From: an uncultured bacterium
GTDB lineage: Bacteria > Fidelibacterota > Marinisomatia > Marinisomatales > TCS55
Direction of reading: 5' to 3'
Assembly: GCA_964466265.1 (NCBI GenBank)
Contig: CAYXMX010000002.1
Coordinates: 15,340 to 79,339, forward strand
DNA: 64,000 nucleotides
This document shows, one piece after another, positions 17,496-64,000 of the stretch. The position numbers were made by a program, and so were the translations under genes. Every line of letters begins with the position of its first letter. The stretch's first letter is position 1. The notes under the pieces are model-generated. The model made no database searches and had not been told where the DNA came from. It saw only the letters and a list, made by a program, of their open reading frames with translations.

Positions 17496-17517
17496 ATTTT
17501 CGTATATAACCTATTCA

Positions 17518-30636: not shown

Positions 30637-33591
30637 ATGAAGTATTGTAAATATATCTATTGTTTATTATTACTTGTCAAATTAGACGGCCAATACCAGT
30701 ACAATCATTCTGAGATTGAATGGCAAACATTTGAAACTGAACATTTCCAGATACATTTTTATTCAGGCACGGAAACAACAGCCCGTGAAGGGGCTTATGT
30801 CGCAGAACAAATTTATCCTCATATAACAGGTTTTTATGAATATACTCCACCAACTAAAACGCATCTTATATTCACTGATTTAGATGATTTTTCCAACGGT
30901 GCAGCTTATTATTATGATAATAAAATATTTATCTGGGCATCACCATTAGATTTTGAATTGAGAGGAAGTCACCGATGGTTGCAAAATGTAATCACACACG
31001 AGTTTACCCATATTGTTTCCCTTCAAAAAGCGATGAAAGCAGGATTAAAGTTTCCAGGTGCCTATTTACAGTGGATGGGGTATGAAGATGAAAAACGGAA
31101 AGATGTGTTGTATGGATTTCCTCAAACCATTGTAAGTTATTCTTTGCCGGGAACTGTTGTCCCTCCCTGGTTGGCAGAAGGAAGTGCTCAGTACATGTAC
31201 CCAGGAGCAGATTGGGATATCTGGGACACCCATCGGGATATGATTTTACGAGATCGAACTTTAAATGATAATCTGCTATCATTTACTGAAATGAATACCT
31301 TTGGTAAAAAGGGAATTGGAAATGAGTCAACATATAACGCCGGTTATGCATTGTGCAGATATATTTCAGGAAAATACGGAGAAGAATCATTAAAAAAAAT
31401 TATGGTTGAATTATCAAAACCATTTCAATTCTCCATCAATCAATCCATTCAAAAAGCCATAGGCGTTAATGGAAGTGAATTGTACAAAAATTTTAAAAGT
31501 ATGCTGGAAAATAGATATGAATTATTAACAAAAAATATCAGAGAAACAAAATTAACCGGGAAAATTATTGAGGATGGAGGATCTGCAAATTTGCACCCTA
31601 AATGGTCTCCAGACGGAAATGAAATTGCATTTATATCCAACAGGGAAAATGATTATTTTAGTCAAACGGACTTATTTATTTACGATTTAAGTTCAAGAAA
31701 TACAAAATTAATTCAGCAAGGTGTTACATCTGCTCCCAATTGGCACCCCATAAAAAAGGTGATCTATTATACAAAGAAATCAACCATACCAAATAAATAT
31801 GGGTCAAAGTATTATGATTTGTACATGTATGATCTTGTGAGGGAAAAGGAGACTCGTCTTACAAAAAACCAGAGAGCATACAATCCAGTATTTATGGAGA
31901 AAGATAGTTCAATTGCATTTTTATCCACTTATGACGGTGGCCAAAATATTTACCGGTTAAATTTAAAAGAAAATTCAATTCAGAAATTGACAGATTATGA
32001 AGATCATTCTATTTTAAGTAGCTTAACTTATGATTTCGATAGAGATCGACTCATTTTTAACCGCACACAACATCATTTCCGGGATACTTATTATCTTTCT
32101 ACTGCTGATTCATCTATCGGTGTAATACTTTCAAATCCTTTATGGGATGCACGAGATGCTGTATATCACAATAATAAATTGCTTTATTCAGATGATCGTT
32201 CTGGAATATTCAACCTCTTTATGATTGATGAAAATTCAAAAGAACAAGCTTATGTCACGAATGTAACCGGTGGAGCATTTATGGCTGATATGGATGATAA
32301 TGGGGCCATCGTTTATTCCCTATATCAAAATGGGAAATACAATATAGCCATTATTGATTCGTTAACAATGATTGATGAGGACGTGGTTGGCTACTCCCCG
32401 AAATATTTTATGAGAAATGATGGACTGTCATCCGTTATGAAGGAACAATTAAATACTGAATCAAAACAATATACTGATGAATTTACAACGATGTTTATCC
32501 TCCCCAGACTCATGCTTGATTATGAAACAGTAAAACCTGGATTTTATTTTTACTCATCTGAAGTCATAGAAAGACTGAATGTATTTGGAGGGGCCTCAGT
32601 TAATAAGGTAATGGATGTCGATTTGTTTTTTATATTTGAATTTAGACGATTTTATCCCACTCTGTTTGCAGAGGTATTTTATCTGACGCGTAATATTCAG
32701 CAATCAAATTTTTATTCATCATACGAGTTAGATGATAATTTAAAATTCAGACTTACCCAATTTGATGCAGGAATGAGATTTCCCCTATTTGGAATGACTC
32801 AAATAGAATTAAAATCTACTTGGCAGGTTTACCGTGCGTTTGTAAAAGAGAATATTCCTCAGGAACACCTCATGGCGGGTGTTGCATATGATTATTATAA
32901 AGGTTGGATCAATGGGTTTAAATGGAGTCTGGATAATGTTAAAAGGTTGGTGGATAGTGATATAAACCCATCAAAGGGATATGCTTTTACTTTTTCTGCT
33001 ATGTATGAAAAAAATGATTTTATTAAAGGATTAAATTTGTCAGATGCCGGAACGTTAACCGCCGAATTTTCAGATAATAACACTTGGCGGGTTAATCTGG
33101 ATGGGCACTACTATTTTTCCATACCTAACACGCAACGATGGACTATATCATTGGGATCTCAGATGGGATGGCTATCTAATAATGATGTTGACTCCTTTTT
33201 CAATTATTTTGGAGGGGGATTGATTGGAATTAAAGGATATCCTTTTTATAGTATTGAAGGTACTCGGCAACTCATAAATAATGTTACCTTTCGAATTCCT
33301 CTTTTTATGCAAAAACACATAAAAATAGGCTGGGTAATTATTCAAAACAGTGTACTGGGGATAGAATATCAAAATGGAAATGCCTGGCGAGATAAATTTG
33401 ATGCATCAGAATTAAAATCCTCCATCGGAATTCAATGGAGGTTAAATGGCTTTTCTTTTTATAATTTCCCAACCGCAATTGAGCTTGAAATGCATCGGGG
33501 ATTGGATATTTTTAAAAAAGAAGTAAATGATAAAAAATTTACTTACGGAAATGAAAACAGATTTTATTTCAAACTCTTATTTGGATTTTGA
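30637..33591 (+). CDS. outer-membrane protein: peptidase-MA-like domain + PD40 (TolB-like) propeller + Omp85-like C-terminal barrel
   Basis: HEFTH zinc-site motif at 30997-31011. PD40-type repeats (HPKWSPDGNEIAFISNRENDYFSQTDLFIYDL, YNPVFMEKDSSIAFLSTYDGGQNIYRLNL). The C-terminal 350 aa are beta-rich, with FGGGLIGIKGYPFYSIEGTRQLINNVTFRIPLF, and end in LLFGF. Confidence 0.55.
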   Translation: MKYCKYIYCLLLLVKLDGQYQYNHSEIEWQTFETEHFQIHFYSGTETTAREGAYVAEQIYPHITGFYEYTPPTKTHLIFTDLDDFSNGAAYYYDNKIFIWASPLDFELRGSHRWLQNVITHEFTHIVSLQKAMKAGLKFPGAYLQWMGYEDEKRKDVLYGFPQTIVSYSLPGTVVPPWLAEGSAQYMYPGADWDIWDTHRDMILRDRTLNDNLLSFTEMNTFGKKGIGNESTYNAGYALCRYISGKYGEESLKKIMVELSKPFQFSINQSIQKAIGVNGSELYKNFKSMLENRYELLTKNIRETKLTGKIIEDGGSANLHPKWSPDGNEIAFISNRENDYFSQTDLFIYDLSSRNTKLIQQGVTSAPNWHPIKKVIYYTKKSTIPNKYGSKYYDLYMYDLVREKETRLTKNQRAYNPVFMEKDSSIAFLSTYDGGQNIYRLNLKENSIQKLTDYEDHSILSSLTYDFDRDRLIFNRTQHHFRDTYYLSTADSSIGVILSNPLWDARDAVYHNNKLLYSDDRSGIFNLFMIDENSKEQAYVTNVTGGAFMADMDDNGAIVYSLYQNGKYNIAIIDSLTMIDEDVVGYSPKYFMRNDGLSSVMKEQLNTESKQYTDEFTTMFILPRLMLDYETVKPGFYFYSSEVIERLNVFGGASVNKVMDVDLFFIFEFRRFYPTLFAEVFYLTRNIQQSNFYSSYELDDNLKFRLTQFDAGMRFPLFGMTQIELKSTWQVYRAFVKENIPQEHLMAGVAYDYYKGWINGFKWSLDNVKRLVDSDINPSKGYAFTFSAMYEKNDFIKGLNLSDAGTLTAEFSDNNTWRVNLDGHYYFSIPNTQRWTISLGSQMGWLSNNDVDSFFNYFGGGLIGIKGYPFYSIEGTRQLINNVTFRIPLFMQKHIKIGWVIIQNSVLGIEYQNGNAWRDKFDASELKSSIGIQWRLNGFSFYNFPTAIELEMHRGLDIFKKEVNDKKFTYGNENRFYFKLLFGF

Positions 33592-41070: not shown

Positions 41071-41513
41071 TGACCTTGTTTACTAGCCAAGAAAGAGTGA
41101 TTATTCTTTTTTTAATATTTTCGGTCGCTATCGGGTTAGTTGCCGGAGGAATTAAACGAAAACTATTCTTACCTGATTATACGCAAAGCACAAATCAAGA
41201 AATTGAAGCGTTTAATACGACAGTAAAAAAAATAAAAAAATCTCTATTGATTGAAAATAGTGAATCCTCAACAAAAACGGATGACTTTGAGGTCGAAGTT
41301 TCTGTAATATTATTAAATATTAATTCAGCAAATAAATCAGATTTATTATCTTTACCTAATATTGGTGAAGTAACAGCTAATAGGATAATTCGTTATCGTG
41401 AAGACTACGGTCCTTTTAAATCCATTGATGATTTATTAAAAGTAAAAGGGATTGGTCCGAGAACTTTTAAAAAGATGAAACCATTAATCACAGCAGGAAC
41501 AAATGGAAAATAA
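41070..41513 (+). CDS. comEA: ComEA-like helix-hairpin-helix DNA-binding protein
   Basis: N-terminal TM helix. C-terminal NINSANKSDLLSLPNIGEVTANRIIRYREDYGPFKSIDDLLKVKGIGPRTFKKM is a tandem HhH motif. Confidence 0.75.
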   Translation: MTLFTSQERVIILFLIFSVAIGLVAGGIKRKLFLPDYTQSTNQEIEAFNTTVKKIKKSLLIENSESSTKTDDFEVEVSVILLNINSANKSDLLSLPNIGEVTANRIIRYREDYGPFKSIDDLLKVKGIGPRTFKKMKPLITAGTNGK

Positions 41514-42258
41514 AATTAAAAAACGTCAATTAAGATCAGATATACTGGAATTATTTATTGTGTTATCTTTGATATTTATGATTATTACCATTTATGTCCC
41601 AAAAGCTATATGGGAAGAAGAGGAGATTATTCAGAATAACAGCCGATTCAAAATTCAAAACCTATATGATGTTGAAATGTTTTATCAAACATTAAATGAT
41701 TCATTTAGCATTGATGGAGCCTGGGCCATTGATCTTATAGACGCAATCAGAGACTCGGTTCACGCTGATTCAACTTATATCGGTGAGCAATCATTCACGC
41801 TTAATGGTAAGAAAGTAAACGTCAATATTCCAAAAACATTTGATATTGAATTTGATACTACGTTTGGCTTCCCTCGGACCCGGCGGGATACGATTATTGA
41901 TACAACACACACCATCGTTGTATACTCTGAAGATTTAGGTAGAAACGATACGATTTTTATTCAACATAAGCAGTTAAATCAGTATGAATCTAATCCCAAC
42001 TTTGTTGGATTAGTTGGGACTGAAGTCAAAGAAAGAACTGAGTTAATTAATTATTATGATTCTTATCAACCAGATGACTCATTGCTATATTGTCCATTGA
42101 CACAGGATCCGTACATTATTACTATTTCAGATGATAAAAGTGGTATCAGGGTAGCAAGCCCTATCACCGATTTGTATAAAGAACGTCGATATTTAATCTT
42201 CTCATTCAAAGCACGAAATCACGGTTATATCAATGACGGTATCCGCAGTTGGGACTAA
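41503..42258 (+). CDS. hypothetical protein with pilin-like N-terminal hydrophobic segment
   Basis: The N-terminus KKRQLRSDILELFIVLSLIFMIITIYVP resembles a class III (prepilin-type) signal with a Glu about 5 residues into the helix. It lacks the canonical Gly at -1. Confidence 0.45.
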   Translation: MENKIKKRQLRSDILELFIVLSLIFMIITIYVPKAIWEEEEIIQNNSRFKIQNLYDVEMFYQTLNDSFSIDGAWAIDLIDAIRDSVHADSTYIGEQSFTLNGKKVNVNIPKTFDIEFDTTFGFPRTRRDTIIDTTHTIVVYSEDLGRNDTIFIQHKQLNQYESNPNFVGLVGTEVKERTELINYYDSYQPDDSLLYCPLTQDPYIITISDDKSGIRVASPITDLYKERRYLIFSFKARNHGYINDGIRSWD

Positions 42259-42267
42259 CGTCTCTCT

Positions 42268-43986
42268 GTGATTTATCTTTCATTTAATTCTTCTCATCTG
42301 CTGTGTACCGTATGGTCATACGGTAAGGAGAAACCCATATTAACACACATAGTTGAATTACACTTACCGGCCAATTTTGCGTTGGCTAGGGGGGATGAAC
42401 GACTATTTAAGAAATTATTTAATAACATTATTGAATCACTTACACGGGAAATTTCCTTAGATGGACAGGATATTATTGTAACAATTCCCGATGACTGGGT
42501 TCATCATAATTTTATGCAGGGAGATTTGGGATTAAATAAGGATGATAATTGGAATATCATTTTATGGCAAAAATCACTGCGATATGGACCTCATAGTAAA
42601 GAATTTTCTACATATGCAGAGCCAGTTCAAAATAACTTCATTCATGTGATTCATATACCGACTATTTTTATTTCTTCAATGAAATTTTCATTGATTGAAT
42701 ACGGTGCTTTACCAGTTTGGTTTGGGACTGAATCTATGTCTTTTACAGGAACACAAGATCGTACATTCGGTATCGCCTCAAATGATCAATCTGGATATCA
42801 CCTGTTTATTGTGTCTAATCTCTTGTTTTTTTATGGTACTGCCCGATTCATTAAAGGAAACTGGAAAGTAACTCACTCCTTTGGATTTGATGATGAAATA
42901 AGTAATCTTCTGAATGATAAAACCAGTCCCTCAATTGAATCATTTAATACGATTTATCCTTTGGATGAACTATCGCCATTGCGACAGGCACATTGGTCAG
43001 GTTTTGAGTTAAATTCTATTGAGATTTTCAAAAATGGCTTAATCGAAGTTGCTGAAACTATGGATGAATATTCGCATCATTTGCTTACTATTCAATCTAT
43101 ATTATTGGATGAATCATTTTGTCGATCAGGGCAGAATTTCTTTTTACCGGCGGGTTTTAATGACGATCCGATCAATAAAGAATCTGAAACGCAAAGCGAA
43201 GGAAGAGAAGATGAAAAGTCAGAGAATGTGACTCAACTTCCTAGAGTGAATAGAAAACTGATTAAGACAAAGACCGCTATTGTGCAAAGAGTGGTTGGTT
43301 TTTTTACCATTGTTGTCATTATTCTTGCTTTTATTTATTCCGTTTATCAAAACAAAACCATTGAAACATCCATCATTCCCCTATCAACAGAAAAGACAGA
43401 TGTAGAAGTCTCGCATGAAATAGAGACGATTCAATCAAAATATCCCAGTCAATTACTTGGAATAATGGATCAATCCCAATCCATGATTTCTGCTATTGAG
43501 TTTATTTTTGCAAATGTTGACTATAAAAAAATTACGTTTCTTTCGACCAGTAATCTTGATTTACAAGTCGAGATCGTCAATGGTGAAGAAGTGAAAACTG
43601 ATTTTACTGAATTGGGTACCATGATAAATTATACAGTTACTGGAATAGACTGCTGTGGTGGATATAAACATTTTTATGAATTTCAATTACCCATAATAAA
43701 GTCTATTGATTTGGGAGTGCAAGGAACATCTGCTTCTTTTGAAGCTGTCTTAAATAATATGGATGTTCAAGTCGAGAAGCTTATTCGTAAAGAAAAAGGA
43801 GCATTTACTCAAACGCCGTTTATTATTAAAGGAACGAGTGAACAGAGCCGAAAAGATATTCTAGAGTTAATAAAATATCATGGAGAAAATATATTAATCA
43901 GAAAAGTAATAATAAAAATGGATCTCGAGATTGGTGCCCCAAAAACTGTGTTTTATGTTTCTGTGTTTGAGCGGAAAAATAAATAA
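42268..43986 (+). CDS. hypothetical bitopic protein (cytoplasmic N-terminal domain of about 335 aa, one TM helix, periplasmic C-terminal domain of about 215 aa)
   Basis: GTG start. A single strongly hydrophobic helix, VVGFFTIVVIILAFIYSVY, preceded by an acidic, low-complexity linker. Any PilM/N/O-like reading is inference only. Confidence 0.5.
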   Translation: MIYLSFNSSHLLCTVWSYGKEKPILTHIVELHLPANFALARGDERLFKKLFNNIIESLTREISLDGQDIIVTIPDDWVHHNFMQGDLGLNKDDNWNIILWQKSLRYGPHSKEFSTYAEPVQNNFIHVIHIPTIFISSMKFSLIEYGALPVWFGTESMSFTGTQDRTFGIASNDQSGYHLFIVSNLLFFYGTARFIKGNWKVTHSFGFDDEISNLLNDKTSPSIESFNTIYPLDELSPLRQAHWSGFELNSIEIFKNGLIEVAETMDEYSHHLLTIQSILLDESFCRSGQNFFLPAGFNDDPINKESETQSEGREDEKSENVTQLPRVNRKLIKTKTAIVQRVVGFFTIVVIILAFIYSVYQNKTIETSIIPLSTEKTDVEVSHEIETIQSKYPSQLLGIMDQSQSMISAIEFIFANVDYKKITFLSTSNLDLQVEIVNGEEVKTDFTELGTMINYTVTGIDCCGGYKHFYEFQLPIIKSIDLGVQGTSASFEAVLNNMDVQVEKLIRKEKGAFTQTPFIIKGTSEQSRKDILELIKYHGENILIRKVIIKMDLEIGAPKTVFYVSVFERKNK

Positions 43987-52336: not shown

Positions 52337-53056
52337 ATGACTCAAGCACACGAAATTCTCGAACCTTTCACTGCCCTCTGGTGGGAGACCATTCTATGGT
52401 CGATCGGAATTATATGGGGACTTCTTTATTTTGCAAAGAAGATGACCCCAAAGCAGATCTCATATCTAATTATTTTCTCCGGTGTTGTGTTGAACGCCAG
52501 AACCTTGTTATTCCAACCGTATATGGTTTATACCCATCAATGGGATATTTATAATAGTTTACCCCTTCATTTATGCGGATTGTCTGCTATTATTTCCGGT
52601 GTGATCATGTTTTATCGAAAGCAATGGCTATACGAACTTCTTTATTTCTGGGGAATCCCGGGAGCTTTCCACTCACTGATTACACCTGAATTTACCCATG
52701 GGACCAGAGGACTGTTTTTTATAGAATATTATATTGCCCATGGGGGCATTATTTTTAGTGCTTTGTTTTGCACGTTAATCCTTGGATTTAAACCGTCAAA
52801 AGGATCATGGTGGAGAGTTTTTCTTTGGACTCAATTACTCTTACCTGTTATTGGTGGGTTCAACTGGCTAATCGGAGCAAATTATATGTATCTCTGTGAG
52901 CCACCTATTGTTAGCAATCCCTTTGTAATAGGGGATTTTCCAGAACATTTAATTGGATTAGAGATTGCTGGATTACTGCATTTTGCGCTGGTATATTTAC
53001 CCTTTGGATTGAGATATCGAAATGAATCAAAAAGTACAGGGACTCCACTTATTTGA
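52337..53056 (+). CDS. 7-TM integral membrane protein, tandem paralog 1 (YwaF/TP0381-like, TIGR02206-type; family name tentative)
   Basis: Shares SLPLHLCGLS, YFWGIPGAFHSLITPEF and GANYMYLCEPP...NPF blocks with the next two genes. Confidence 0.8.
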   Translation: MTQAHEILEPFTALWWETILWSIGIIWGLLYFAKKMTPKQISYLIIFSGVVLNARTLLFQPYMVYTHQWDIYNSLPLHLCGLSAIISGVIMFYRKQWLYELLYFWGIPGAFHSLITPEFTHGTRGLFFIEYYIAHGGIIFSALFCTLILGFKPSKGSWWRVFLWTQLLLPVIGGFNWLIGANYMYLCEPPIVSNPFVIGDFPEHLIGLEIAGLLHFALVYLPFGLRYRNESKSTGTPLI

Positions 53057-53732
53057 CAACCTCCATGTAATCTATTTGGTTACATGGTTAATTATTTGGT
53101 TTACGGTTCCTCTGGTTGGGAAAAAGTATCTCAACAAGCATCAGCAGAAATGGTTTGTTTGGATCATGATTGTTTTCATGGTAGGGCAGGAAATGGTAGA
53201 TTATTGGAACCGAACTCAATTTCGCCATTTATCCTGGGACTTAGACTTACCACTACATTTATGTCATTTATCTCTCATTTTTTCCGTTTATATTCTATTT
53301 AGAAGGAGTCAATTTCTTTTCGAAATTACTTACTTTTGGGGATTGGGTGGTGCCCTTCAAACCATGCTGACACCAGATATGACTAATTTTGATAATTATT
53401 TGGCTATTTTTCTCATGTATGCGCACCACGCAATGATCATTTTAACCTGTCTCTGGTTGGTCGTTGTGGAGGGATATCGTACCCGGTCTGGAGCGATCAA
53501 GCGTACCTTTATTTTTACATATATTGTCATTTGGCCAGTATGGCTGGTGGATTGGATTACTGGGGGAAATTATATGTATTTGATGGAGAGGCCTCCCACA
53601 GAAAGTCCACTTGTATTTGGGAATTGGCCTTGGTACATCATTAATATTCAGGTAGTAGCATTTCTTCTGTTTAACATCATTAATTTGCCCATGATTCTCT
53701 TAAGAAAAAAAGAATCTGTTACATCATATTGA
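53022..53732 (+). CDS. 7-TM integral membrane protein, tandem paralog 2
   Basis: LPLHLCHLS, YFWGLGGALQTMLTPDM and GGNYMYLMERPPTESPLVFGNWPWY. Its start overlaps paralog 1 by 35 nt. Confidence 0.8.
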   Translation: MNQKVQGLHLFDNLHVIYLVTWLIIWFTVPLVGKKYLNKHQQKWFVWIMIVFMVGQEMVDYWNRTQFRHLSWDLDLPLHLCHLSLIFSVYILFRRSQFLFEITYFWGLGGALQTMLTPDMTNFDNYLAIFLMYAHHAMIILTCLWLVVVEGYRTRSGAIKRTFIFTYIVIWPVWLVDWITGGNYMYLMERPPTESPLVFGNWPWYIINIQVVAFLLFNIINLPMILLRKKESVTSY

Positions 53733-54435
53733 ATCAATTTATTCCTCCTGAAGTCTATGGCTCTCTCCATAATATTTATATGCTATCGGAATTGTTTTAT
53801 GGATTATTATTCCTTTTCTTGGAAAAAAATACTTAAATCATAAACATCGAAGGTTAATATCCTTTGTTTTGATTTTCCTCACATTAGGTCAGGAAATTAT
53901 TAATGAATCCGTTCTGTTTTATCAGGGTTTATGGAAACTCTCGGTGAATTTACCGGTTCATTTATGTGGATTTTCCCTTTTTCTGATATCCTGGGTTTTG
54001 GCCACAAAAAAACAAGCTGCCTTTGAATTGGCATATTTCTGGGGAATTGCTGGTGCATCCCAGGCCATATTATCTCCGGATTTGAATGGGATTGGAAATC
54101 CCATGGGCATTTTTATATATTTCTTCTCTCACTCCATTATTGTATTAGATGTGGTTTGGCTGATATATGTCGAAGGAATGAGATTAAGAAAACGTTCATT
54201 ATTGGCTGTCATAATACTGACCAATGGTTTTGCCTTCCTGGTTTCAATTTTGAATAATCTTATCGGAGGAAATTATTGGTATTTATGTTATAAGCCTCAC
54301 TCCAACAGTCCCTTTCTGTATGGTGAATGGCCTTTCTATCTACTAAGTATCGAATTAGCCGGAATTTTTCTTATGGGTTTGATTTATTTACCCTGGATGC
54401 CATTTTTCAGTCATACTTCATCCATAGAAAATTAA
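53729..54435 (+). pseudogene. tandem paralog 3, apparently disrupted by a 1-nt frameshift near 53782 (or N-terminally truncated from TTG 53869)
   Basis: The frame starting at TTG 53729 reads (M)NQFIPPEVYGSLHNIYM, homologous to the paralog 2 N-terminus MNQKVQGLHLFDNLHVIYL. Homology then continues one base back as AIGIVLWIIIPFLGKKYLNHKH (compare TWLIIWFTVPLVGKKYLNKHQ). The rest (LPVHLCGFS, YFWGIAGASQAILSPDL, GGNYWYLCYKP) is intact. Confidence 0.6.
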
Positions 54436-54560: not shown

Positions 54561-55586
54561 ATGACAACACTCTTACTTTACTTTTTCCTCGCCTTGGGTG
54601 TATCCTTTCTCTGTTCCTTATTGGAATCGGTATTATTATCTATGACACGCTCCCACATTGCTGTTTTAGTTAAGGAGGACCACATTTCCGGGCGGTTACT
54701 TGAAAAGCTCAAGAAGAACATCAATCGTCCACTAGCAGCTATTTTATCCCTGAATACCATCGCAAATACAGTGGGTGCTGCGGGGGTTGGGGCGGTTACC
54801 TATAATTTATACGGAAGTAAGTGGGTAGCGGTTACATCAGGTTTATTAACCATGTCAATTCTGATCTTTTCTGAAATTATTCCAAAAACAATTGGAGCTC
54901 ATTACTGGAGACATATTGTATCCCCTTCTGCTTATTTAATCAGGTTTTTAATGGTTTTAATGTATCCATTTGTCATCTTACTGGAATCATTGTCTAATTG
55001 GCTGGAACCGGCTATCAAACAGGATGTTGTCACAAAGGAAGATGTGATCGCCATGGCGGAAATGGGGGAAGACGAAGGGACAATCGAAGAAGACGAAAGT
55101 ACCATAATAGAAAATATTCTTAGGCTGGATAATGTAACTGCAGAAGAAGTAATGACTCCTCGAACGGTTGTTTTTGCATTACAGAAAGATATGACAGTGA
55201 AGGAAGCTTTGGATAAATATCCCATTATTACCTTTTCTAGGATTCCTGTTTATGGTAGAGATATGGAAGATATTGTTGGATTAACCCGCCGGTATGTATT
55301 ACTCAAGAGTAAAGCAGAAGACCAATTTGACTCTACGATGGAAGAATTATCAAATCCGGTCCATGTTGTTTCAGAAAAAGATTCAGTGGGAACTATCCTG
55401 GATGAATTTGTCCGTCGCCGGGAGCATTTATTTATTGTTAAGGACGAGTTTGGACAATTTGCTGGTATTATTACCCTTGAGGATGCCATTGAAACATTGC
55501 TTGGTGTCGAAATCGTAGATGAGATGGATTCGGTTGTTGATATGCGGAAATTAGCTGTTAGTAAAAGTAAAGAACAAAATAAATAA
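54561..55586 (+). CDS. CNNM/CorC-type transporter (DUF21 membrane domain plus CBS pair, no CorC_HlyC tail)
   Basis: The N-terminal 4-TM DUF21 domain ends in SEIIPKTIGA. Two CBS motifs follow (VMTPRTVVFAL...IPVYGRDMEDIVGL and VHVVSEKDSVGTILDEF...LFIVKDEFGQFAGIITLEDAIETLLG). Confidence 0.82.
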   Translation: MTTLLLYFFLALGVSFLCSLLESVLLSMTRSHIAVLVKEDHISGRLLEKLKKNINRPLAAILSLNTIANTVGAAGVGAVTYNLYGSKWVAVTSGLLTMSILIFSEIIPKTIGAHYWRHIVSPSAYLIRFLMVLMYPFVILLESLSNWLEPAIKQDVVTKEDVIAMAEMGEDEGTIEEDESTIIENILRLDNVTAEEVMTPRTVVFALQKDMTVKEALDKYPIITFSRIPVYGRDMEDIVGLTRRYVLLKSKAEDQFDSTMEELSNPVHVVSEKDSVGTILDEFVRRREHLFIVKDEFGQFAGIITLEDAIETLLGVEIVDEMDSVVDMRKLAVSKSKEQNK

Positions 55587-55636
55587 TATAAATTAGCCCG
55601 TTTCTTAAAGGGGAGAGTTAAACTAAATTCGGAGTT

Positions 55637-58600
55637 ATGAAGCGTGCCCTCTGTGTCTTCTCTTTAGTGATCGTTGGTGTCCTTGCATTTGCAGCGACAC
55701 CTACAGTTCGGTTTTACCTAACTGAACTGGACTTTATAAGTAGTCAACCTGTTCCTGAGTCAGAGACACAATTTAGATCACATATAAAAGCAACGTTTGA
55801 TGAAGAAAATAATATTATTAAAAAAACTTATATTGATCCAAATGGGAAGATTAATCAGTCAGAAATTTTTACATATGATTCTACCCATACCTTAATATAT
55901 AAAGATATTTATCTCTCAGGGACACAACTTATCAAACAACTTCTCTTTGGGATGGAAGAAAAGGCAGTTGATTATGTGGAATATGTATATGGCGTTGATA
56001 CGGTAAAAGACTGGACCGACCGGTTCTCAATCCTGGATTACAATCAGCTCTCCCAACTGGTCAATCACGCATTTTTTGATGTAAATGCATTCCAATATGG
56101 ATTCACACATTTTGAATATGATTCACTAGGATATTTATCGAAAGAAGAATGGGTTCGAGAACCCTCAGGGAAAACCATGAGACTCTGGAATCATTTCTTT
56201 GACCCCGCTACTCAACTAACACGAATTATGCAATATGATTCAAATGGTGTGTTGGTTCAGGATTTCCAGTTAAGTCCTGATGGAACTGAATCCATATTCT
56301 GGTTCAAAAACTTGACGGACTCTCTATTTATTAACCATACTTTAATTTCTTTTTCTAATGAAAGTTACTTGGATTGGGGAAAGGTAATATGGATTAGAGT
56401 GGATACAACGGATGCATGTTGTGACAGTATCGAATATCTATTGCCAAAACAGTTTTTGGTAAAAGGACATTTTACTGTGAATACAGGTTTAGATTCTTTT
56501 TTAGTTGACAGTGCTACATACGACATTGTTTTTACCGGAAAGGGTAGTAGTGGCTATGATGCAACAGAACGAAGGGTTAATGGTATTCAATATGATGTTT
56601 CATCTCCCTTATTTGAATTATTTACAAGACAGTTTATCAATAAGCCAATCATTTCTTTTCGTCAGTCAGAACCGACTATTTCAGCTGTTTTAGTATGGAT
56701 GGAAATGGACGACACAACCCAAATAGTGACCTCTATTTTTGATTCGACGGATTTGACCTGGGCTGGAAAGGGAATGTTTACCCCATCCCAGCAACCCAGT
56801 TTAAAAGATAGCATATATTATTCAGTAAGAATTTATGGGACAGACAGAGCAGGGAATCAATCAAATCCCATCGAAGTTGATTCAGTATTTTTTGATGTTC
56901 GGGCTCCTTCCCTAATGATTTCATCTCCTTTAACCGGAGAATTCAGAAATAATCTATCTCTCATATTTAGTCTCAACGAGCCATTACAATCATGGAAAGT
57001 ATCTGTCAAGTCGGTCGGAGGTGAACCGGATCCTAATTCTCCTTACCTATTAGAAATGGATTCATCTCTTTTTGATTTATCTGAAATAGAAAAAGATTTA
57101 GCCGATGAATTCCAACTAAACGATGGAACCATCTATCAATTGATTTTGTCAGGTATTGACCGGGCTGGCAATGTTTCAAGAGCATTGATAGTAGACTCAG
57201 TTACTTATGATATTTCTCCACCTGTTTTAACGACCATTTATCCGGCAACAGGTGCTGCAATCAATCAAACAACAATATCATACAGTATCAATGAACCGCT
57301 GAGAGCTGGTGAATTCCGCTGGGAGCAAACAGAGGGCACCATGGATTCATCAGCTCCACATATTATAGTATTGATGGAAGAGGAGTTGTCTCTGGGAGAT
57401 CATATTAATATTCTTCTGGAGAATCAGACCGAATTGACTGATGGCGCTTCCTATTCACTTTTATTTGTTGGTCAGGATAAAGCAGGTAACGATGGAATTG
57501 CTCCAAACCATATAAATATTTTGTATGATGCTGTCCCACCCAAATTTACTCAGGTTAAACCCCGGCGAGGTTCAGCAATAAACCAAGGGCATGTTTCTTA
57601 CACATTATCGGAAAACACCAAAGAGGGAACGTTTACTTGGAAGTGGATAGGTGGAATAAAAGATCCAATATCCGTCCATACGGCTCAACTGATGAATGAT
57701 GAGAAAAACGCTGGTGTACATGATTCTCTCTTACTATCCCAATCTCCAGAATTGGTAGACGGAGGAATTTATTCCATCGAATTGAATGCGACTGACCGTG
57801 CGGGAAATGATGCAGAAACAATTACAATAGAGAATATCTTATATGATTTTACTCCTCCGACCATAACCATTATTTACCCTGTTTCTATGTCATTCTTACC
57901 TCATAAAAAATGGTCATATTCACTTTCAGAAACATTAGAAGAAGGATCATTTTTTATAAGAAGGACCGGTGGTGCAGAAGATAGAAATTCTCCTTACCGT
58001 ATTGTATTAAATAATAAAGAGAAGTCAGCTGGCGACCACGATGATATCCAGTTGATGTTAATGCCTGATATTGTTGAAGGAACCATTTATGAATTATCTT
58101 TCGCTGGGAGGGATCGGGCAAATAACACAACAGAGTCATTTAGCCTACCAAATATACAATATGATTTTACACCTCCTGTTGTTTCTATTTTGGATTTAAG
58201 CGATAGTACAGACGTGAACCATCAATTAATCAGTTTTGAATTCAGTGAAAAATTAAAAGAGGCATGGATCACTTGGGAATACACTGGGGGAGTGAATGAT
58301 CCCAATGTCATTCATAAACAACCCCTGATTGATGGTGAACTAAATAAAGGAATTCATTCTAATACTCAAATATTAAATTCACCTCAATTGGTCGATGGTT
58401 CAGTATACAAGATTTCCATATTTGGGTTCGACCGGGCGGGAAATAAATCCAATGTGTCCGTTGTAAATAAGATCCGTTATGATGTTACTGCCCCCATGGT
58501 CAATGTAACTTATCCAATCACCCAAACCTATGTTTCATCTCCAGCTATCAGTTTTAACTTGAGTGAAAAACTTTTTTATGGAAAAATTATCTATACTCAA

Positions 58601-61600
58601 ACAGAAGGTACATTTGATCCGCTATCTCCCCAGGAATTTATCATGTGGAGAGAAATTCGTGCCGATGGATCTTATGCAAATGTGTTTTACCAAGATGGTC
58701 CTGAATTAGTCCAAGGGGCGATCTATACTATTTCTATTGAAGGAAGTGACCGTGCAGGAAATATTGCTTCCTTCGCCAGCGTGTCGGGTATTGTTTATGA
58801 TGCTATCCCACCTGTTGTATCTGTTTGGACAGCCGACTCCTCTTTATTCGTTAATCACAATCGTATTACTTACTCGATCAGTGAGGACATTAAAAGCGGG
58901 ACTATTATGTGGAAGGCAATGGGAGGGGAGAATGATCCATCTTCACCCCATATTATTAATTTGATAGCTGACGAATTGAAAGAAAGTAATCTTGAAAATT
59001 ATACGCTGATCAATGCCCCCAGTTTACACGATGGAACTCTATACTCAATTTCAATCTTTGTCAAGGATTTTGCCGGGAATACCAGCGAGACAGCAAAAAT
59101 GGATAATATCTTATTCGATGTTACTCCACCCATTTTGAAAATTGTTTCTCCAGGTGAAAATTATATTACTAAAGGAAGTGAACTGATTTTTTCAATTTCA
59201 GAAGATCTTTTAAATGGTAAAATAACCTGGCAGGGAAATAATGAAAATCTCATGGAAATATCAACCAGTTGGGATTTGCCGGATACTGTATTGAAACAGG
59301 GGCAATATATCTTAAATGAATATTATTATCCGCCTCTTGTTGACGGAGGTGTGTATTCAGTAACCATTACTGGCGAAGACCCTTCTGGAAATATTGCTGC
59401 TCCATCCAATATTTCCAATTACAGGATTGATAGAACATCACCTGTTTTTACTTCCCTTAAGCCTGAATCAGATTCATTTGTAAACCTCGATCATTTGGGA
59501 TATACATTGAGTGAGGAACTCCTCTCCGGGTCTGTCTTAATAAAATGGGATCTGGATCAAATAATAGTGCCACTAAAAAATGAAGAATTATTAGAAGGGG
59601 AGCATCCACTCAATCCATTATTGGCAAAATCGGAGTGGAGAAACGGTCGAAAATATACTATCGAATTTTCAGGAATTGATTTTGCCGGAAATGCTTCAGA
59701 TACATCAAAGATTGAGAATTTGGTTTACGATATTTCTCCACCGGTATTAGCAGTTCTACATCCAAATAATGATTCTTATGTACGATCATCATTGGTATCA
59801 TTTTCAGTTAACGAACAACTATTAGAAGAAGAATTGATATGGTTATCCGAATCTGGATCTCGGGTTGTAGAAAAACTAATTGATTCGAGTTTAACCGTTG
59901 GAGAACACTCATTAGAGCATATGTTAAGTTTGGTTGAAAAAATACCTTATTCTGTTTATATACAAGGGGTGGATCTGGCTGGAAATACAGGTAGATCACC
60001 TATTATAAATAATATACAATATGATACAACAAAACCAGAATTAGTCATATTGTTACCCTTAGAGAATTCAATAATTAATTATAAGGAGGTCACTTATCAT
60101 TTAAACGAGGATTTGAAAGAAGGAAAAATAATTTGGCAAAATTTAAATGGTTTAGATAAAAATCCGATCCATGAAATAATTCTAAAAAATAATGAACTGA
60201 TGGCCGGCGATCATTCGGATATTTCTTTCAATCAAAAACCGGAATTAGTTGAAAATGCTTCGTACATGGTAAGATTAGAGGGGACAGACTTGGCCGGAAA
60301 TAAAAACATCGCTAAACCGGTCCAAAAGTTTACTTATGATTCTTCTCCCCCAGTATTCTCGAATATTTCACTGAAATCAGAATCAATAATTAATCGTGTT
60401 AATCTTGAGTTTACTCTTAGCGAAGACATCCTTTCTGGTAAAGTAACATTTAGCAGAGTGGGAGGTGCATTGGATGATAAAAGTCCCCATTTTGTGAATT
60501 TGAGCGGTAGTAAACTGAAGCATGGGACGCAAGGAGGTGAGTTACCACTTGAATTGATTCCGTTAATCAACGGAGCTGTTTACAATATTGAATTTTATGG
60601 AGTAGATTTTGCTAAAAATGAATCTGGAGAAACATTAATTGAAAATGTTGCATTTGATAATAAGCCACCGGTTCTGTATATCAAAACCCCTCAAAACCAG
60701 TCATCGACCAATCAACTTTCCATTGATTATAGTATTAGTGAAGACATGGCCTCTGGCAGATTACTTATTGATATTGAATCCGGCAGTCAGCTAATCATTA
60801 ACCTGGATGAAAATGAAAGAAAATTGGGTGAATATTTTCAATTCCTCCCACAGGAGATTGGTAGATTAAATGATGGCATAACACTGAATATGACCTTGGA
60901 AGGAAGCGATGCTGCAGGAAATATGGCTACACCTTACACTGTCGAAAATGTCAGGTACGACACCACCCATCCAAAAGTCAATATAACGCTTCCTCTGAAC
61001 AATGACTTCGTGAACAATAATTCAATTTCACTGGAAATCAGTGAAAATTTAGCAGAAGGAAGATTGATCATTACTCAAACAGACGGTATTTTGGATAATC
61101 GTTCACCTCTAACCATCCCCTTTCAAACAAATGAAATGTTGCAGGGAGATTATAATCATATTCAATTGTCCATGGCTGTACCGCTGCTAAATGGCTCTAT
61201 TTATTCCTATGAATTTATTGGAAAGGATTTTGCGGGAAACGATGTTATCTCACAACCTGTTACCCATATTGTTTATGATAATGAACCTCCTGTAGTATCA
61301 TTGAGTAAACCTATCGACTCTGAGCAAATTAAAAATACAGAAATAAGCTACATATTATCTGATCATTTATCCCGGGGAGTAATTATTTTCGAAAGAACTG
61401 GGGGAACAACTGATCCTCATTCACCTCATATTATCAATCTGGAAGGATCCCAATTGCGACAAGGATCTCATATGGATGTTGAAATGAGAATAGTAGACTT
61501 GCTTGCAGATGGAGGAAAATATTCCATATCTATCCGAGGGTGGGATAAAGCGGGGAATGAATCACTCATTTCTTCTGTTAACAATATTCTTTTTGATGTC

Positions 61601-64000
61601 CTCCCGCCCATTTTGACTATTCACAAACCGATGAATGGGGATGCAATACATGAACCGATTGTCACCTTGGAAATGAGTGAAAAGCTGGCAGCAGGTACAT
61701 TAACATTTAAACAAATTGGTGGTGTAATTGACCCGGGGAGTCCCTATGAAATATCATTATTGTCACCCTACAATAGTCAGGGTATTTTTAAAGACATCAA
61801 TTTATCCAATGATGTTACTTTAATGGAGGGGGCTGTTTATTCCATTATATTCAAGGCACAAGATCCGGCCGGAAATATTTCTTTACCGGTGACTGTTTCG
61901 AATATCAGTTATGATATCACCCCTCCCAAGATTATTATATCGGATCCCGTGGAGAATTCACATTTAAATACGTTTTCAGTCTCATTTTCTATTGATGAGA
62001 ATTTGGTCATAGGTCAACTGGAAGTAAAGCGGACGCTGGGTAGCAAAGATGAAGGGAGTCCTCATTCTTTTAACTTAAAAGATAATCTTCTCATGGTGGG
62101 CACCCATACGATGGCAGTTCACGAACTTACAGAACTGATAAGTGGATCAGAGTATATGATTCGGTTAAGCGGGATGGATCGAGCAGGGAACGAAGCCATT
62201 TCTACGGAAGTTGGCCAATTAATATACGATGTTGATCCTCCCATAATGGAGATTATATCACCCTTGACCGGGACAAAAGTAAATCATTCTGTAATTGGGT
62301 TTTCTATTAATGAATCTTTGCAGAATTTAAAAATAATCTGGGTGGATGAAAATGGGCTCGAAGTTACCAGAAATCTCCCGGAAAAATATTATATCCCTCA
62401 AAGGTTTACTCAAGTTGTTTTGAATGATAAACCCCAGTTAGTGAGTGGATCAACTTACTCTATAATCTTGGAGGGAACCGATCTAGCAAGGAATACATCC
62501 GAGACCGAAATCAATCAAATAGAATTTGATAATACTCCACCCCAGTTTACTTTAGCTGATCCATTATCCGGCGATTTCATCAACCGTACTTATATTCAAT
62601 TTGAGTCCAGTGAACCTCTAGAATCTGGTCAGCTTATTTGGAAAGCTGTCGGGGGAATTCCCGACCCACTCAGTCCTCGAGAAGTAGAGTTGGTTAATGA
62701 CGAGCTAATTTACTTCATGGTTTCATCTGGTGACTTAGCTAACCAAATGCCATTGCAAGATGGAACAGTGTATCAAATCATCATAGCCGGTAGAGACCTT
62801 GCAGAAAATGAAAGCCAAATGGTCCTGGCCGACCAGGTTCATTATGATATCACCGCACCTGTGCTTCAGCTAATATCACCAGAAAATAACACATGGGTCA
62901 ATAATGATGATGTGCAGTTTAGCATCAGTGAAAATCTTCAATCTGGCAAAATAACCTGGGTGAGGAAATCAGGTGAAAATGATCCTGTCATTCATACGAT
63001 TGATTTAAAGAGCAATCAATGGGTAGCGGGAACCCACTCTACTTCGGGGCTGGATAATGTACCTTTGATCAGTGGTGTCCAATATCAGATTGAAATAACT
63101 GGAATAGATTTAGCAGGGAACCCTTCGACAAATACTGATTTCAAAATCATTTATTTTGACACTACAGCACCAACGTTAGTTATTAATCAACCAACAGTTG
63201 GTTCATATATTAATCACAAAAATATTTCTTTCTCAGCATCAGAACCTTTAAAATCAGGATCTTTGCAGTTAATAGATCAGAAGTCAGGTGTCATACAAGA
63301 AGTGCTCCTTTCCGGTGAAGAATTGACTATTCTGGATTGGCCAAATAAACCATTAGCTCGTTCATTACCCATCAAAGACGGGGAGATTTATACATATCAA
63401 TTGATTGGAACTGATCTTGCCGGAAATAGAGGTATGTCTGTGAAAGTGCCAGATGTCACGTATGATATATCGAAACCTGTTTTTAAAATAACCAGACCCA
63501 GAGAAAATTATGTAAATATTGAAGGAATTACTTCCTATACTCTCAATGAAGACCTTGTCTCTGGAACGGAAACATGGGTACGTACCGGCGGAAAAATTCT
63601 TGGACCTGTTGCGACGGCCAACATCCCCCAAGTCCTTGAATTAGTGGGGGAGGAGTTACTGGCGGGCGATCACGTTAATATTCAATTTGCCAACGCTCCA
63701 GAATTAAATGCAACGACGAAATATAAGCTTACATTGCAGGGAATAGATAAAGCGGGTAATGAGAGTCTCACCGTCTCAGTAGATGGAGTAGAATTTATTC
63801 CTGATTTAAGGGGAAACTGGTTATTTAAGGGAGCCATCATGACAGTCGTCTGGACGTTTGATCCTGATGAAGGAGTCGACGATCAGTCGACTGGAACATT
63901 CTCCCAAGGAATGCAAATGGGAACTAAGATTAGTAACCAGGAATTCGGTCGATATTCGATTAATTATTCAAAGGTGCCTTGGGAAATGACATATACAATG
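55637..64000 (+). CDS. giant secreted repeat protein, 5' portion (at least 2788 codons; continues beyond the window)
   Basis: ATG 55637 and signal peptide MKRALCVFSLVIVGVLAFAATP. I hand-translated 55637-59470 and 63782-64000 in this frame and found no stop. The (Y/F)D-x-x-PP repeat motif stays in this frame at 23 sites up to 63461. The ORF is absent from the track only because it has no stop in the window. Confidence 0.88.
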   Translation, partial: MKRALCVFSLVIVGVLAFAATPTVRFYLTELDFISSQPVPESETQFRSHIKATFDEENNIIKKTYIDPNGKINQSEIFTYDSTHTLIYKDIYLSGTQLIKQLLFGMEEKAVDYVEYVYGVDTVKDWTDRFSILDYNQLSQLVNHAFFDVNAFQYGFTHFEYDSLGYLSKEEWVREPSGKTMRLWNHFFDPATQLTRIMQYDSNGVLVQDFQLSPDGTESIFWFKNLTDSLFINHTLISFSNESYLDWGKVIWIRVDTTDACCDSIEYLLPKQFLVKGHFTVNTGLDSFLVDSATYDIVFTGKGSSGYDATERRVNGIQYDVSSPLFELFTRQFINKPIISFRQSEPTISAVLVWMEMDDTTQIVTSIFDSTDLTWAGKGMFTPSQQPSLKDSIYYSVRIYGTDRAGNQSNPIEVDSVFFDVRAPSLMISSPLTGEFRNNLSLIFSLNEPLQSWKVSVKSVGGEPDPNSPYLLEMDSSLFDLSEIEKDLADEFQLNDGTIYQLILSGIDRAGNVSRALIVDSVTYDISPPVLTTIYPATGAAINQTTISYSINEPLRAGEFRWEQTEGTMDSSAPHIIVLMEEELSLGDHINILLENQTELTDGASYSLLFVGQDKAGNDGIAPNHINILYDAVPPKFTQVKPRRGSAINQGHVSYTLSENTKEGTFTWKWIGGIKDPISVHTAQLMNDEKNAGVHDSLLLSQSPELVDGGIYSIELNATDRAGNDAETITIENILYDFTPPTITIIYPVSMSFLPHKKWSYSLSETLEEGSFFIRRTGGAEDRNSPYRIVLNNKEKSAGDHDDIQLMLMPDIVEGTIYELSFAGRDRANNTTESFSLPNIQYDFTPPVVSILDLSDSTDVNHQLISFEFSEKLKEAWITWEYTGGVNDPNVIHKQPLIDGELNKGIHSNTQILNSPQLVDGSVYKISIFGFDRAGNKSNVSVVNKIRYDVTAPMVNVTYPITQTYVSSPAISFNLSEKLFYGKIIYTQTEGTFDPLSPQEFIMWREIRADGSYANVFYQDGPELVQGAIYTISIEGSDRAGNIASFASVSGIVYDAIPPVVSVWTADSSLFVNHNRITYSISEDIKSGTIMWKAMGGENDPSSPHIINLIADELKESNLENYTLINAPSLHDGTLYSISIFVKDFAGNTSETAKMDNILFDVTPPILKIVSPGENYITKGSELIFSISEDLLNGKITWQGNNENLMEISTSWDLPDTVLKQGQYILNEYYYPPLVDGGVYSVTITGEDPSGNIAAPSNISNYRIDRTSPVFTSLKPESDSFVNLDHLGYTLSEELLSGSVLIKWDLDQIIVPLKNEELLEGEHPLNPLLAKSEWRNGRKYTIEFSGIDFAGNASDTSKIENLVYDISPPVLAVLHPNNDSYVRSSLVSFSVNEQLLEEELIWLSESGSRVVEKLIDSSLTVGEHSLEHMLSLVEKIPYSVYIQGVDLAGNTGRSPIINNIQYDTTKPELVILLPLENSIINYKEVTYHLNEDLKEGKIIWQNLNGLDKNPIHEIILKNNELMAGDHSDISFNQKPELVENASYMVRLEGTDLAGNKNIAKPVQKFTYDSSPPVFSNISLKSESIINRVNLEFTLSEDILSGKVTFSRVGGALDDKSPHFVNLSGSKLKHGTQGGELPLELIPLINGAVYNIEFYGVDFAKNESGETLIENVAFDNKPPVLYIKTPQNQSSTNQLSIDYSISEDMASGRLLIDIESGSQLIINLDENERKLGEYFQFLPQEIGRLNDGITLNMTLEGSDAAGNMATPYTVENVRYDTTHPKVNITLPLNNDFVNNNSISLEISENLAEGRLIITQTDGILDNRSPLTIPFQTNEMLQGDYNHIQLSMAVPLLNGSIYSYEFIGKDFAGNDVISQPVTHIVYDNEPPVVSLSKPIDSEQIKNTEISYILSDHLSRGVIIFERTGGTTDPHSPHIINLEGSQLRQGSHMDVEMRIVDLLADGGKYSISIRGWDKAGNESLISSVNNILFDVLPPILTIHKPMNGDAIHEPIVTLEMSEKLAAGTLTFKQIGGVIDPGSPYEISLLSPYNSQGIFKDINLSNDVTLMEGAVYSIIFKAQDPAGNISLPVTVSNISYDITPPKIIISDPVENSHLNTFSVSFSIDENLVIGQLEVKRTLGSKDEGSPHSFNLKDNLLMVGTHTMAVHELTELISGSEYMIRLSGMDRAGNEAISTEVGQLIYDVDPPIMEIISPLTGTKVNHSVIGFSINESLQNLKIIWVDENGLEVTRNLPEKYYIPQRFTQVVLNDKPQLVSGSTYSIILEGTDLARNTSETEINQIEFDNTPPQFTLADPLSGDFINRTYIQFESSEPLESGQLIWKAVGGIPDPLSPREVELVNDELIYFMVSSGDLANQMPLQDGTVYQIIIAGRDLAENESQMVLADQVHYDITAPVLQLISPENNTWVNNDDVQFSISENLQSGKITWVRKSGENDPVIHTIDLKSNQWVAGTHSTSGLDNVPLISGVQYQIEITGIDLAGNPSTNTDFKIIYFDTTAPTLVINQPTVGSYINHKNISFSASEPLKSGSLQLIDQKSGVIQEVLLSGEELTILDWPNKPLARSLPIKDGEIYTYQLIGTDLAGNRGMSVKVPDVTYDISKPVFKITRPRENYVNIEGITSYTLNEDLVSGTETWVRTGGKILGPVATANIPQVLELVGEELLAGDHVNIQFANAPELNATTKYKLTLQGIDKAGNESLTVSVDGVEFIPDLRGNWLFKGAIMTVVWTFDPDEGVDDQSTGTFSQGMQMGTKISNQEFGRYSINYSKVPWEMTYTM
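56591..63790 (+). repeat. 23 tandem diverged coding repeats (modal 318 nt / 106 aa) inside the giant ORF, Ig-like (SbsA/Big_5-like) by motif
   Basis: Motif starts: 56591, 56891, 57206, 57524, 57842, 58160, 58478, 58796, 59114, 59426, 59726, 60020, 60335, 60653, 60956, 61274, 61592, 61910, 62225, 62525, 62843, 63155, 63461. Each unit starts YD.TPP...I..P and ends G.D.AGN. Confidence 0.85.

Follow-up and report, generated by a model that had tools for sequence, protein, structure and literature searches.

A giant Ig-like repeat protein with a frozen domain array encoded by a Marinimicrobia (SAR406) bacterium

Introduction

Giant exported proteins built from immunoglobulin (Ig)-like repeats are a well-known kind of bacterial product, and the present study concerns an unnamed family of them, represented by one very large gene at the end of a 64,000-nucleotide (nt) stretch of contig CAYXMX010000002.1 (hereafter the window), which comes from an uncultured bacterium of the Fidelibacterota. 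Among the proteins of comparable build that have been described, SiiE of Salmonella enterica (53 bacterial Ig-like (BIg) domains; PDB 2yn3/2yn5), MpIBP/MpAFP, LapA and Bap are Ca2+-dependent adhesins and, like the protein considered here, huge acidic molecules composed of tandem, divergent BIg domains of ~100 amino acids (aa). In SiiE, a type I inter-domain Ca2+ site is made up of two acidic residues within a domain and of one that ends the preceding domain, and this site rigidifies the stalk (PMC5466336). Adhesins of the SiiE type have no Sec signal and are accompanied by an adjacent dedicated type I secretion system (T1SS), by a C-terminal signal and often by RTX repeats. A second set of proteins comes from the same superphylum as the organism of the window: SprB of Flavobacterium johnsoniae and GhpA of Aureispira (PDB 9fls/9flp), surface proteins that are secreted by the type IX secretion system (T9SS) and combine a Sec signal with a long Ig-like array. 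Giant Ig-repeat proteins of the FCB group, of which Fidelibacterota is a phylum, are usually T9SS cargo.

The protein of the window takes features from both sets. With SiiE it shares a D-x-A-G-N motif and the placement of three acidic positions per domain, which resembles that of the type I Ca2+ site; it is unlike the SiiE type in having a cleavable Sec signal, no RTX repeats and no adjoining transporter. Both proteins have distinct terminal domains, which in the present one are unrelated to anything known. The likeness to SiiE in sequence is confined to one motif. It resembles SprB and GhpA in its Sec signal and long array, and differs from them in that it has no detectable T9SS C-terminal domain (CTD) and no gliding or hook partner genes nearby. 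Marinimicrobia (SAR406) are almost unstudied experimentally, abundant though they are in oxygen-minimum zones and in the dark ocean; a search of the Marinimicrobia literature on T9SS, giant proteins, adhesins and metaproteomics returned no paper describing this family.

An intact gene that continues past the end of the window

Machine translation of positions 55637-64000 of the forward strand gives 2788 codons and no stop codon, base 64000 being the last base of codon 2788, while the other five frames of the same segment contain 131-256 stops each. The closest in-frame stop on the 5' side is a TAA at 55619, and an open frame of this length would be expected by chance, given the base composition of the window, with a probability of ~1e-93. 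A preliminary description of the window, in which part of the frame had been translated by hand and 59470-63780 checked through motif phase, had proposed that a secreted protein of 2788 aa or more is cut off by the end of the window; no in-frame stop occurs in the part left over, and the proposal holds. The list of open reading frames (ORFs) supplied for this segment contains only ORFs of 61-88 aa, because the program that made it does not report ORFs that are still open where the source ends, and the lack of a stop within the window is, as had been suspected, the sole reason for the omission.

The true C-terminus was reached in public copies of the same contig, where the stop codon lies 43 codons past the end of the window, which brings the full product to 2831 aa. 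The complete sequence was taken from P0013, the 2831-aa product of an NCBI contig of 79,561 nt, which matches all 2788 residues encoded in the window. The protein encoded by the CNNM/CBS gene of the window and the 2831-aa giant are likewise encoded together on ENA ERZ4201062 NODE_26 (81,000 nt; locus L001), which differs from the window at 2 bases in 19,440 overlapping, and on the Logan contig ERR2834522_18178. The ENA and Logan assemblies, which are independent, contain the same giant gene, in one of them with one amino-acid difference. The gene is also by far the largest of the window, as the preliminary description had it, the runner-up being an ORF of 984 aa. The mature protein would have 2809 aa, a mass of 313 kDa and an acidic isoelectric point (pI) of 4.57, and the cysteines of the whole product are limited to Cys6, which lies in the signal peptide, Cys261 and Cys262.

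That the ORF is an artefact, through mis-assembly of its repeats, as a pseudogene or as a frame left open by chance, has next to no probability and is effectively refuted. Mis-assembly is unlikely because the repeats of the protein, with a mean identity of 29% to one another and a maximum of 41%, differ much too widely to have been collapsed or wrongly joined, and because the full-length gene is found in the ENA and Logan assemblies and its full-length product on the NCBI contig; the length of the open frame and ten intact collinear orthologues also speak against an artefact. What can be cited on its side is a contig from JGI, in the 90% identity cluster of P0013, on which the gene is called in four pieces. 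That contig measures 71 kb and its four pieces (P0134, P0136-P0138) have 579, 253, 453 and 1470 aa; some assemblies do, then, break the gene, the cause in this case being probably frameshifts introduced in sequencing or an allele that is disrupted in that population. The giant gene is real, intact and native to a bacterium of the Marinimicrobia (SAR406 / Fidelibacterota). It has a GC content of 0.379, against 0.361 elsewhere in the window, and a GC content at third codon positions (GC3) of 0.31. A horizontally acquired island was considered and rejected, as both GC and GC3 fit the genome and upstream synteny is kept.

Anatomy of the protein

The giant gene begins 50 nt past the stop codon of the CNNM/CBS gene on the same strand. 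A scan for promoters and terminators around it gave no convincing candidate and no difference from a shuffled control; the gene may be co-transcribed with neighbouring ones. The coordinates of its parts, and of the other features of the window that are discussed below, are collected in Table 1.

The N-terminus of the product reads MKRALCVFSLVIVGVLAFAATP and is predicted to be cleaved between AFA and AT. This signal peptide, which the preliminary description had already called signal-peptide-like, is the sole strongly hydrophobic 19-residue stretch of the whole protein; a Sec-type signal peptide is kept in all 13 orthologues, which start with MKRAL[SC]VFS...ASA followed by ST at the cleavage site. 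A lipoprotein reading was rejected, since orthologues do not keep Cys6 and the sequence lacks a lipobox. The signal peptide is followed by an N-terminal domain in which five YD-like beta-hairpin motifs can be seen by eye. Sequence and profile searches with this domain returned no match in Pfam, NCBIfam or the PDB; in particular, residues 1-328 gave no Pfam or NCBIfam match of any kind at E <= 10, the RHS_repeat and YD-repeat families included. An AlphaFold2 (AF2) model of the N-terminal 303 aa, built from four sequences, reached a mean predicted local distance difference test (pLDDT) score of 35.5 and was unusable.

The bulk of the protein consists of 24 tandem bacterial Ig-like domains of ~105 aa (Big_3_3/Big_13 type), all 24 of which are detected by a hidden Markov model (HMM) built from the protein's own repeats. 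The repeat consensus reads PPv..P...iN..isY.lSE.L.sG.i.W..GG..D..SPh..L...EL..G.H....L...P.L.DG..Y.i...G.D.AGN......v..i.YD. The recurring motif from which the preliminary description had started does mark real domain boundaries, in phase, at 23 sites (codons 319, 419, 524 and so on to 2609, the last at nt 63461); the form given for it, (Y/F)D-x-x-PP, was too strict, as it occurs only 14 times in the protein and the looser (Y/F/I)D-x-x-x-P is needed to cover all the sites. With the whole protein as query, Pfam returns Big_3_3 (PF13750; E = 3.7e-34, 118.1 bits), Big_13 (PF19077; E = 5.6e-20, 72.2 bits), both against a cut-off of 27, and InlK_D3 (E = 2.3e-12), and NCBIfam returns an OmpL47-type domain (NF047446) at 67 bits, above its cut-off. 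One repeat alone has no match in either library, and therefore the whole-protein scores sum many weak partial matches centred on D-x-A-G-N, and the Ig-like subfamily that the repeats represent is a divergent one. Searched against the PDB, a profile of the 23 regular repeats found the BIg domains of SiiE as its best match (2yn3, E = 7e-4), by way of the DG..Y......D.AGN region.

Four positions of the domain are conserved almost without exception among 507 domains of 21 proteins, namely E27 (96%), which lies in S-E-x-L, D88 and N92 (96% each), which both lie in D-x-A-G-N, and D105 (93%), which is the domain boundary. The acidic spacing is analogous to that of the SiiE type I site, and it is a reasonable inference that the junctions between domains are stiffened by Ca2+.

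The last part of the product is a C-terminal domain that begins GNWLFKGAIMTVVWTF and is basic, with a pI of 9.2 as compared with 4.5 for the rest of the protein. Neither Pfam, NCBIfam, a profile search of the PDB nor Foldseek gave a significant family or fold match for it. The region was modelled by AF2 on P0004, which is 78% identical to it, and the model, usable for the C-terminal domain itself only, predicts an all-beta domain of ~7 consecutive antiparallel strands at pLDDT 70-85. Foldseek searches of the PDB with this domain returned FABP/CRBP, YxeF and a designed beta-barrel, all non-significant (E >= 0.6), and with the Ig part they placed GhpA fragments on top, again non-significantly (E = 0.05-0.3). 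A barrel of the calycin or lipocalin kind would have eight up-and-down strands and an N-terminal GxW motif; the domain carries a GNW motif, its Foldseek matches to barrels are the weak ones just given, and it has no match in sequence.

Table 1. Position of the giant gene, of its parts and of other features in the window
Feature	Position (nt)	Strand	Remark
PorZ-like beta-propeller	3570-5201	+	T9SS-related
T9SS-related GWxTD-domain protein	5186-6460	+	
PorV-like gene	26518-27900	+	T9SS-related
899-aa protein with Por_Secre_tail CTD	27934-30633	+	32 bits vs cut-off 27
984-aa protein	30637-33591	+	T9SS-related; weak PD40 and peptidase-MA matches
Three tandem TMEM164-family (PF14808) paralogues	52337-54435		5' of CNNM/CBS gene
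CNNM/CBS gene	54561-55586	+	directly 5' of giant gene
GGAG, Shine-Dalgarno-like element	55631-55634	+	2 nt 5' of ATG 55637
Signal peptide, codons 1-22	55637-55702	+	MKRALCVFSLVIVGVLAFA, followed by ATP; Sec/signal peptidase I type, A-x-A cleavage motif
N-terminal domain, residues 23-218 (~195 aa)	55703-56290	+	beta-rich; 71% identical to orthologues
Ig0, residues 219-320	56291-56596	+	degenerate first Ig-like domain, ends in YDVSSP; found with HMM of own repeats
R01-R23, residues 321-2722	56597-63802	+	23 tandem Ig-like domains, 98-112 aa each
R03, residues 526-631	57212-57529	+	best-conserved repeat, 71% to orthologues; recognisable across deep family
R16, residues 1882-1987	61280-61597	+	'PIDSEQIK' motif; second-best-conserved repeat, 65%; position kept in distant members
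C-terminal domain, residues 2723-2831 (~109 aa)	63803-64000 (first 66 residues)	+	71% identical to orthologues; last 43 codons past window

Relatives and the fixed order of the repeats

A scan of one genome per species of the GTDB found 13 orthologous loci, in metagenome-assembled genomes and one draft genome that are labelled Marinimicrobia, Neomarinimicrobiota or Fidelibacterota, or, in four cases, 'uncultured bacterium' only. Ten complete orthologues have 2814-2831 aa and are 52-61% identical to the protein of the window, which is thus more diverged than the products of neighbouring genes, as these are 68-86% identical across the same loci. The highest conservation among orthologues falls on the two end domains and on repeats R03 and R16 (Table 1).

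The alignment of the 11 sequences spans 2832 columns and contains 12 distinct indel events of 1-8 residues, with no gain or loss of a domain. Because the ten orthologues differ by these small indels only, the array of the giant protein is frozen and position-specific. Orthologous repeats are 43-71% identical, as compared with 29% for paralogous repeats within one protein, and therefore each repeat has a lineage of its own. The order can be followed further out: when the 24 domains of the window protein are compared with those of distant relatives that have as many, 10-19 of them are most similar to the domain of equal rank in the array, as against about one expected by chance. In deeper branches the number of domains ranges from 21 to 28.

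Word-indexed protein searches with both end domains found only few relatives, all of them fragmentary and one bearing the name Candidatus Marinimicrobia, and an exhaustive HMMER search with a profile of the N-terminal domain found 122 proteins. The best matches of the latter include ~15 full or near-full giants of 2445-3229 aa, and the complete ones among them have the same N-terminal domain, Ig array and C-terminal domain starting with GNW. NCBI labels these giant relatives 'hypothetical protein'.

End domains shared with small exported proteins

By sequence comparison, both end domains of the giant protein are mobile modules, each of which is also present in small exported proteins. The N-terminal ~190 aa recur in secreted proteins of ~320 aa, one 90%-identity cluster of which has 175 members. 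Four of the small proteins (P0055, P0057, P0058 and P0060, from loci L018 and L019) were seen to consist of the N-terminal module of ~190 aa, a PPPRTGN linker and a C-terminal beta domain of ~70 aa. A Pfam search with ten proteins that carry the N-terminal module (nine of 213-341 aa and one of 655 aa) gave no significant match, and the gene context of a small protein of this kind, with Exo_endo_phos neighbours, was uninformative.

The C-terminal domain, in turn, makes up the last ~107 aa of two lipobox-bearing (LITGC) proteins of 218 aa, P0010 (L016, 1181-1837) and P0011 (L017, 229-885). The C-terminus of P0010 is 96% identical to that of the orthologue at locus L014, and P0011 occurs on contigs of two independent assemblies, on one of which a DUF4384 gene adjoins it; this context was uninformative as well. 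The fusion seen in P0010 and P0011 may be due either to recent domain shuffling or to chimeric assembly.

Export and anchoring signals

The window itself offers a positive control for the detection of a T9SS sorting domain, namely the 899-aa T9SS cargo, whose Por_Secre_tail CTD passes its threshold (Table 1). Two features expected of a T9SS cargo are found, namely the Sec signal of the giant protein and T9SS machinery in the genome, represented by the PorV-like and PorZ-like genes. The sorting domain itself, for which the preliminary description had looked to the true C-terminus, was not detectable there. The last 117-123 aa of the giant protein have no match to a T9SS CTD in Pfam or NCBIfam at E <= 10, and 11 related C-terminal domains have none either, which brings the number tested to 12 with that of the window protein; TIGR04183 and TIGR04131, which model T9SS tails, should be part of NCBIfam. 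An alignment by hhalign of the profile of the giant's C-terminal domain with the window's own T9SS CTD had a probability of 0.24%.

Other known routes gave a similar outcome. The giant protein contains no GGxGxDxUx motif of the RTX type, no LPXTG or PEP-CTERM motif and no C-terminal hydrophobic segment. With regard to the type V secretion system, neither the whole protein nor its termini match an autotransporter, intimin or invasin family of Pfam, and the C-terminal residue is not aromatic. The MXAN_2561 family (NF045522) scored 115.4 bits, below its cut-off of 150, with only positions 152-251 of the profile matched. Finally, no tail of the MXYO-CTERM kind, which we take to be Cys-containing, was seen in the C-terminus on inspection by eye, no MXYO-CTERM model having been run.

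Gene neighbourhood

The upstream order is conserved among the orthologous loci and consists of a penicillin amidase gene, two or three TMEM164 paralogues, the CNNM gene and the giant gene. In the window the TMEM164-family paralogues are three in tandem. They are found 5' of the CNNM and giant genes in 12 of the 12 loci with upstream matches, in two copies in three loci and in three copies in most. On the downstream side, the locus of the window, as continued just past its end in L001 (19608-20870), has an isochorismatase gene followed by a PhdYeFM/ParE toxin-antitoxin pair; in 10 of 10 orthologous loci the giant gene is followed by a gene whose small basic product ('MAKGTSFA...') looks DUF4295-like by eye, and after it come what appear by eye to be GltX and GlnS genes. 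The differing downstream genes point to a local insertion or rearrangement in this genome. No transporter gene lies beside the giant gene, either at the window locus or at the orthologous ones.

Some further observations concern the window as a whole. All of its 48 ORFs of at least 150 aa lie on the forward strand, and such strict co-orientation over 64 kb is unusual. The window also holds mreBCD-PBP2-rodA, hrcA-grpE-dnaJ and a TRAP transporter, and ORFs of 251, 572, 435, 422 and 432 aa in it have no Pfam match (41503-43986, 17476-20038, 7300-8598).

Discussion

On balance, the giant protein is probably a cell-surface fibre or adhesin of fixed length, exported by Sec, cleaved by signal peptidase I, probably stiffened by Ca2+ and provided with a head and a base. 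According to this model, the Sec pathway would export the 2831-aa precursor and signal peptidase I would cut after AFA, upon which the 24 Ig-like domains would form an extended rod of ~90-100 nm, a textbook Ig-like domain spanning ~4 nm. E27, D88 of the D-x-A-G-N motif and the boundary residue D105 would probably form Ca2+ sites at the junctions and stiffen the rod as in SiiE-type adhesins. The N-terminal 'head', with its beta-hairpin repeats, could then bind a ligand on particles or on other cells, while the basic all-beta C-terminal 'base' could tether the rod to the anionic cell envelope or to a partner protein. In such a molecule, which would work as a fixed-length spacer or adhesin, it would matter exactly how many domains there are and in which order they stand.

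Several points weigh against this model. No signal for secretion across, or anchoring in, the outer membrane was found (T9SS CTD, RTX, LPXTG, PEP-CTERM, autotransporter), and therefore the surface exposure of the protein is assumed. The gene sits among housekeeping genes and has no dedicated transporter. Binding of Ca2+ is read from the positions of motifs and not from a structure, and the roles given to head and base are deduced from conservation and charge only, the model of the N-terminal domain being unusable and the fold of the C-terminal domain unmatched. The presence of the C-terminal domain in a lipobox protein fits docking and is no proof of membrane binding.

Two other explanations take up some of these points. 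The protein could be a structural component of the envelope, such as an S-layer-like protein, a scaffold of the periplasm or envelope, or a subunit of a machine comparable to the heptameric grappling hook GhpA, in which position-specific contacts of each Ig domain would explain why number and order are frozen. Strict positional orthology without gain or loss of a domain at 52-61% identity is what this explanation would predict, and the conservation of R03 and R16 across the family, the lack of a surface-sorting signal, the syntenic location among housekeeping genes rather than on an island, and the GhpA fragments at the top of the Foldseek list are in line with it. It is nevertheless considered unlikely, as no conserved partner genes adjoin the locus, distant relatives vary from 21 to 28 domains, the Foldseek matches are non-significant, and acidic Ig arrays with D-x-A-G-N are typical of extended adhesin stalks such as that of SiiE.

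That the protein is instead a T9SS cargo is quite improbable. In that case its last ~109 aa would be a highly divergent CTD, recognised and cleaved by PorV and PorU, and the fibre would then be attached to the outer membrane via anionic lipopolysaccharide, like SprB or FCB cargo of the gingipain type. A PorV-like gene, a Por_Secre_tail cargo and a PorZ-like gene are all found in the same window, the Sec signal is in place, the C-terminal domain has the size of a CTD (~100 aa, all-beta, ~7 strands), and the export route usual for giant Ig-repeat proteins of the FCB group would also suggest it. What speaks against it is the absence of a match to PF18962 or to NCBIfam models in this protein and in 11 relatives, while the cargo of the window passes the threshold, together with the negligible hhalign probability against the window's own CTD. 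In addition, few parts of the protein are as well conserved as the C-terminal domain, and a sorting tag that is cleaved off would not usually be so; the domain also occurs in fusion with a small lipobox protein, and its predicted up-and-down meander has weak calycin/FABP-like matches and none to a CTD.

Returning to the fibre or adhesin that is favoured here, giant Ig-repeat proteins as such are no novelty; what is new is the pair of end domains and the strictly kept count and order of domains in an unnamed family. In this family, the number and order of domains have stayed fixed over deep divergence, unlike in the copy-number-variable adhesins, such as Bap and MpIBP, that dominate the literature. 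Both end domains lack a family assignment, and the protein has no recognisable signal for export across or anchoring in the outer membrane in a phylum that has a T9SS. For annotation, a family of 'hypothetical proteins' now has a domain map and a gene model that covers its full length.

At least ten species-level genomes carry the giant gene intact and in a syntenic position. This suggests that its product is a major feature of the cell exterior, and we think that it acts at the surface, as a spacer or an adhesin, in a lineage that is known to live in the particle-rich dark ocean. A bolder version, which at present seems rather doubtful, would see in it a surface organelle specific to the Marinimicrobia/Fidelibacterota lineage, that is, a position-specific fibre of 24 domains, a 'molecular ruler' whose ligand-binding head and basic beta-barrel base would both be new and which would pass through the outer membrane, or be fixed to it, by means other than T1SS, the type V secretion system, the T9SS CTD or known C-terminal anchors. 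If so, the frozen domain count would reflect a required physical reach, for example in the attachment to marine particles or to partner cells.

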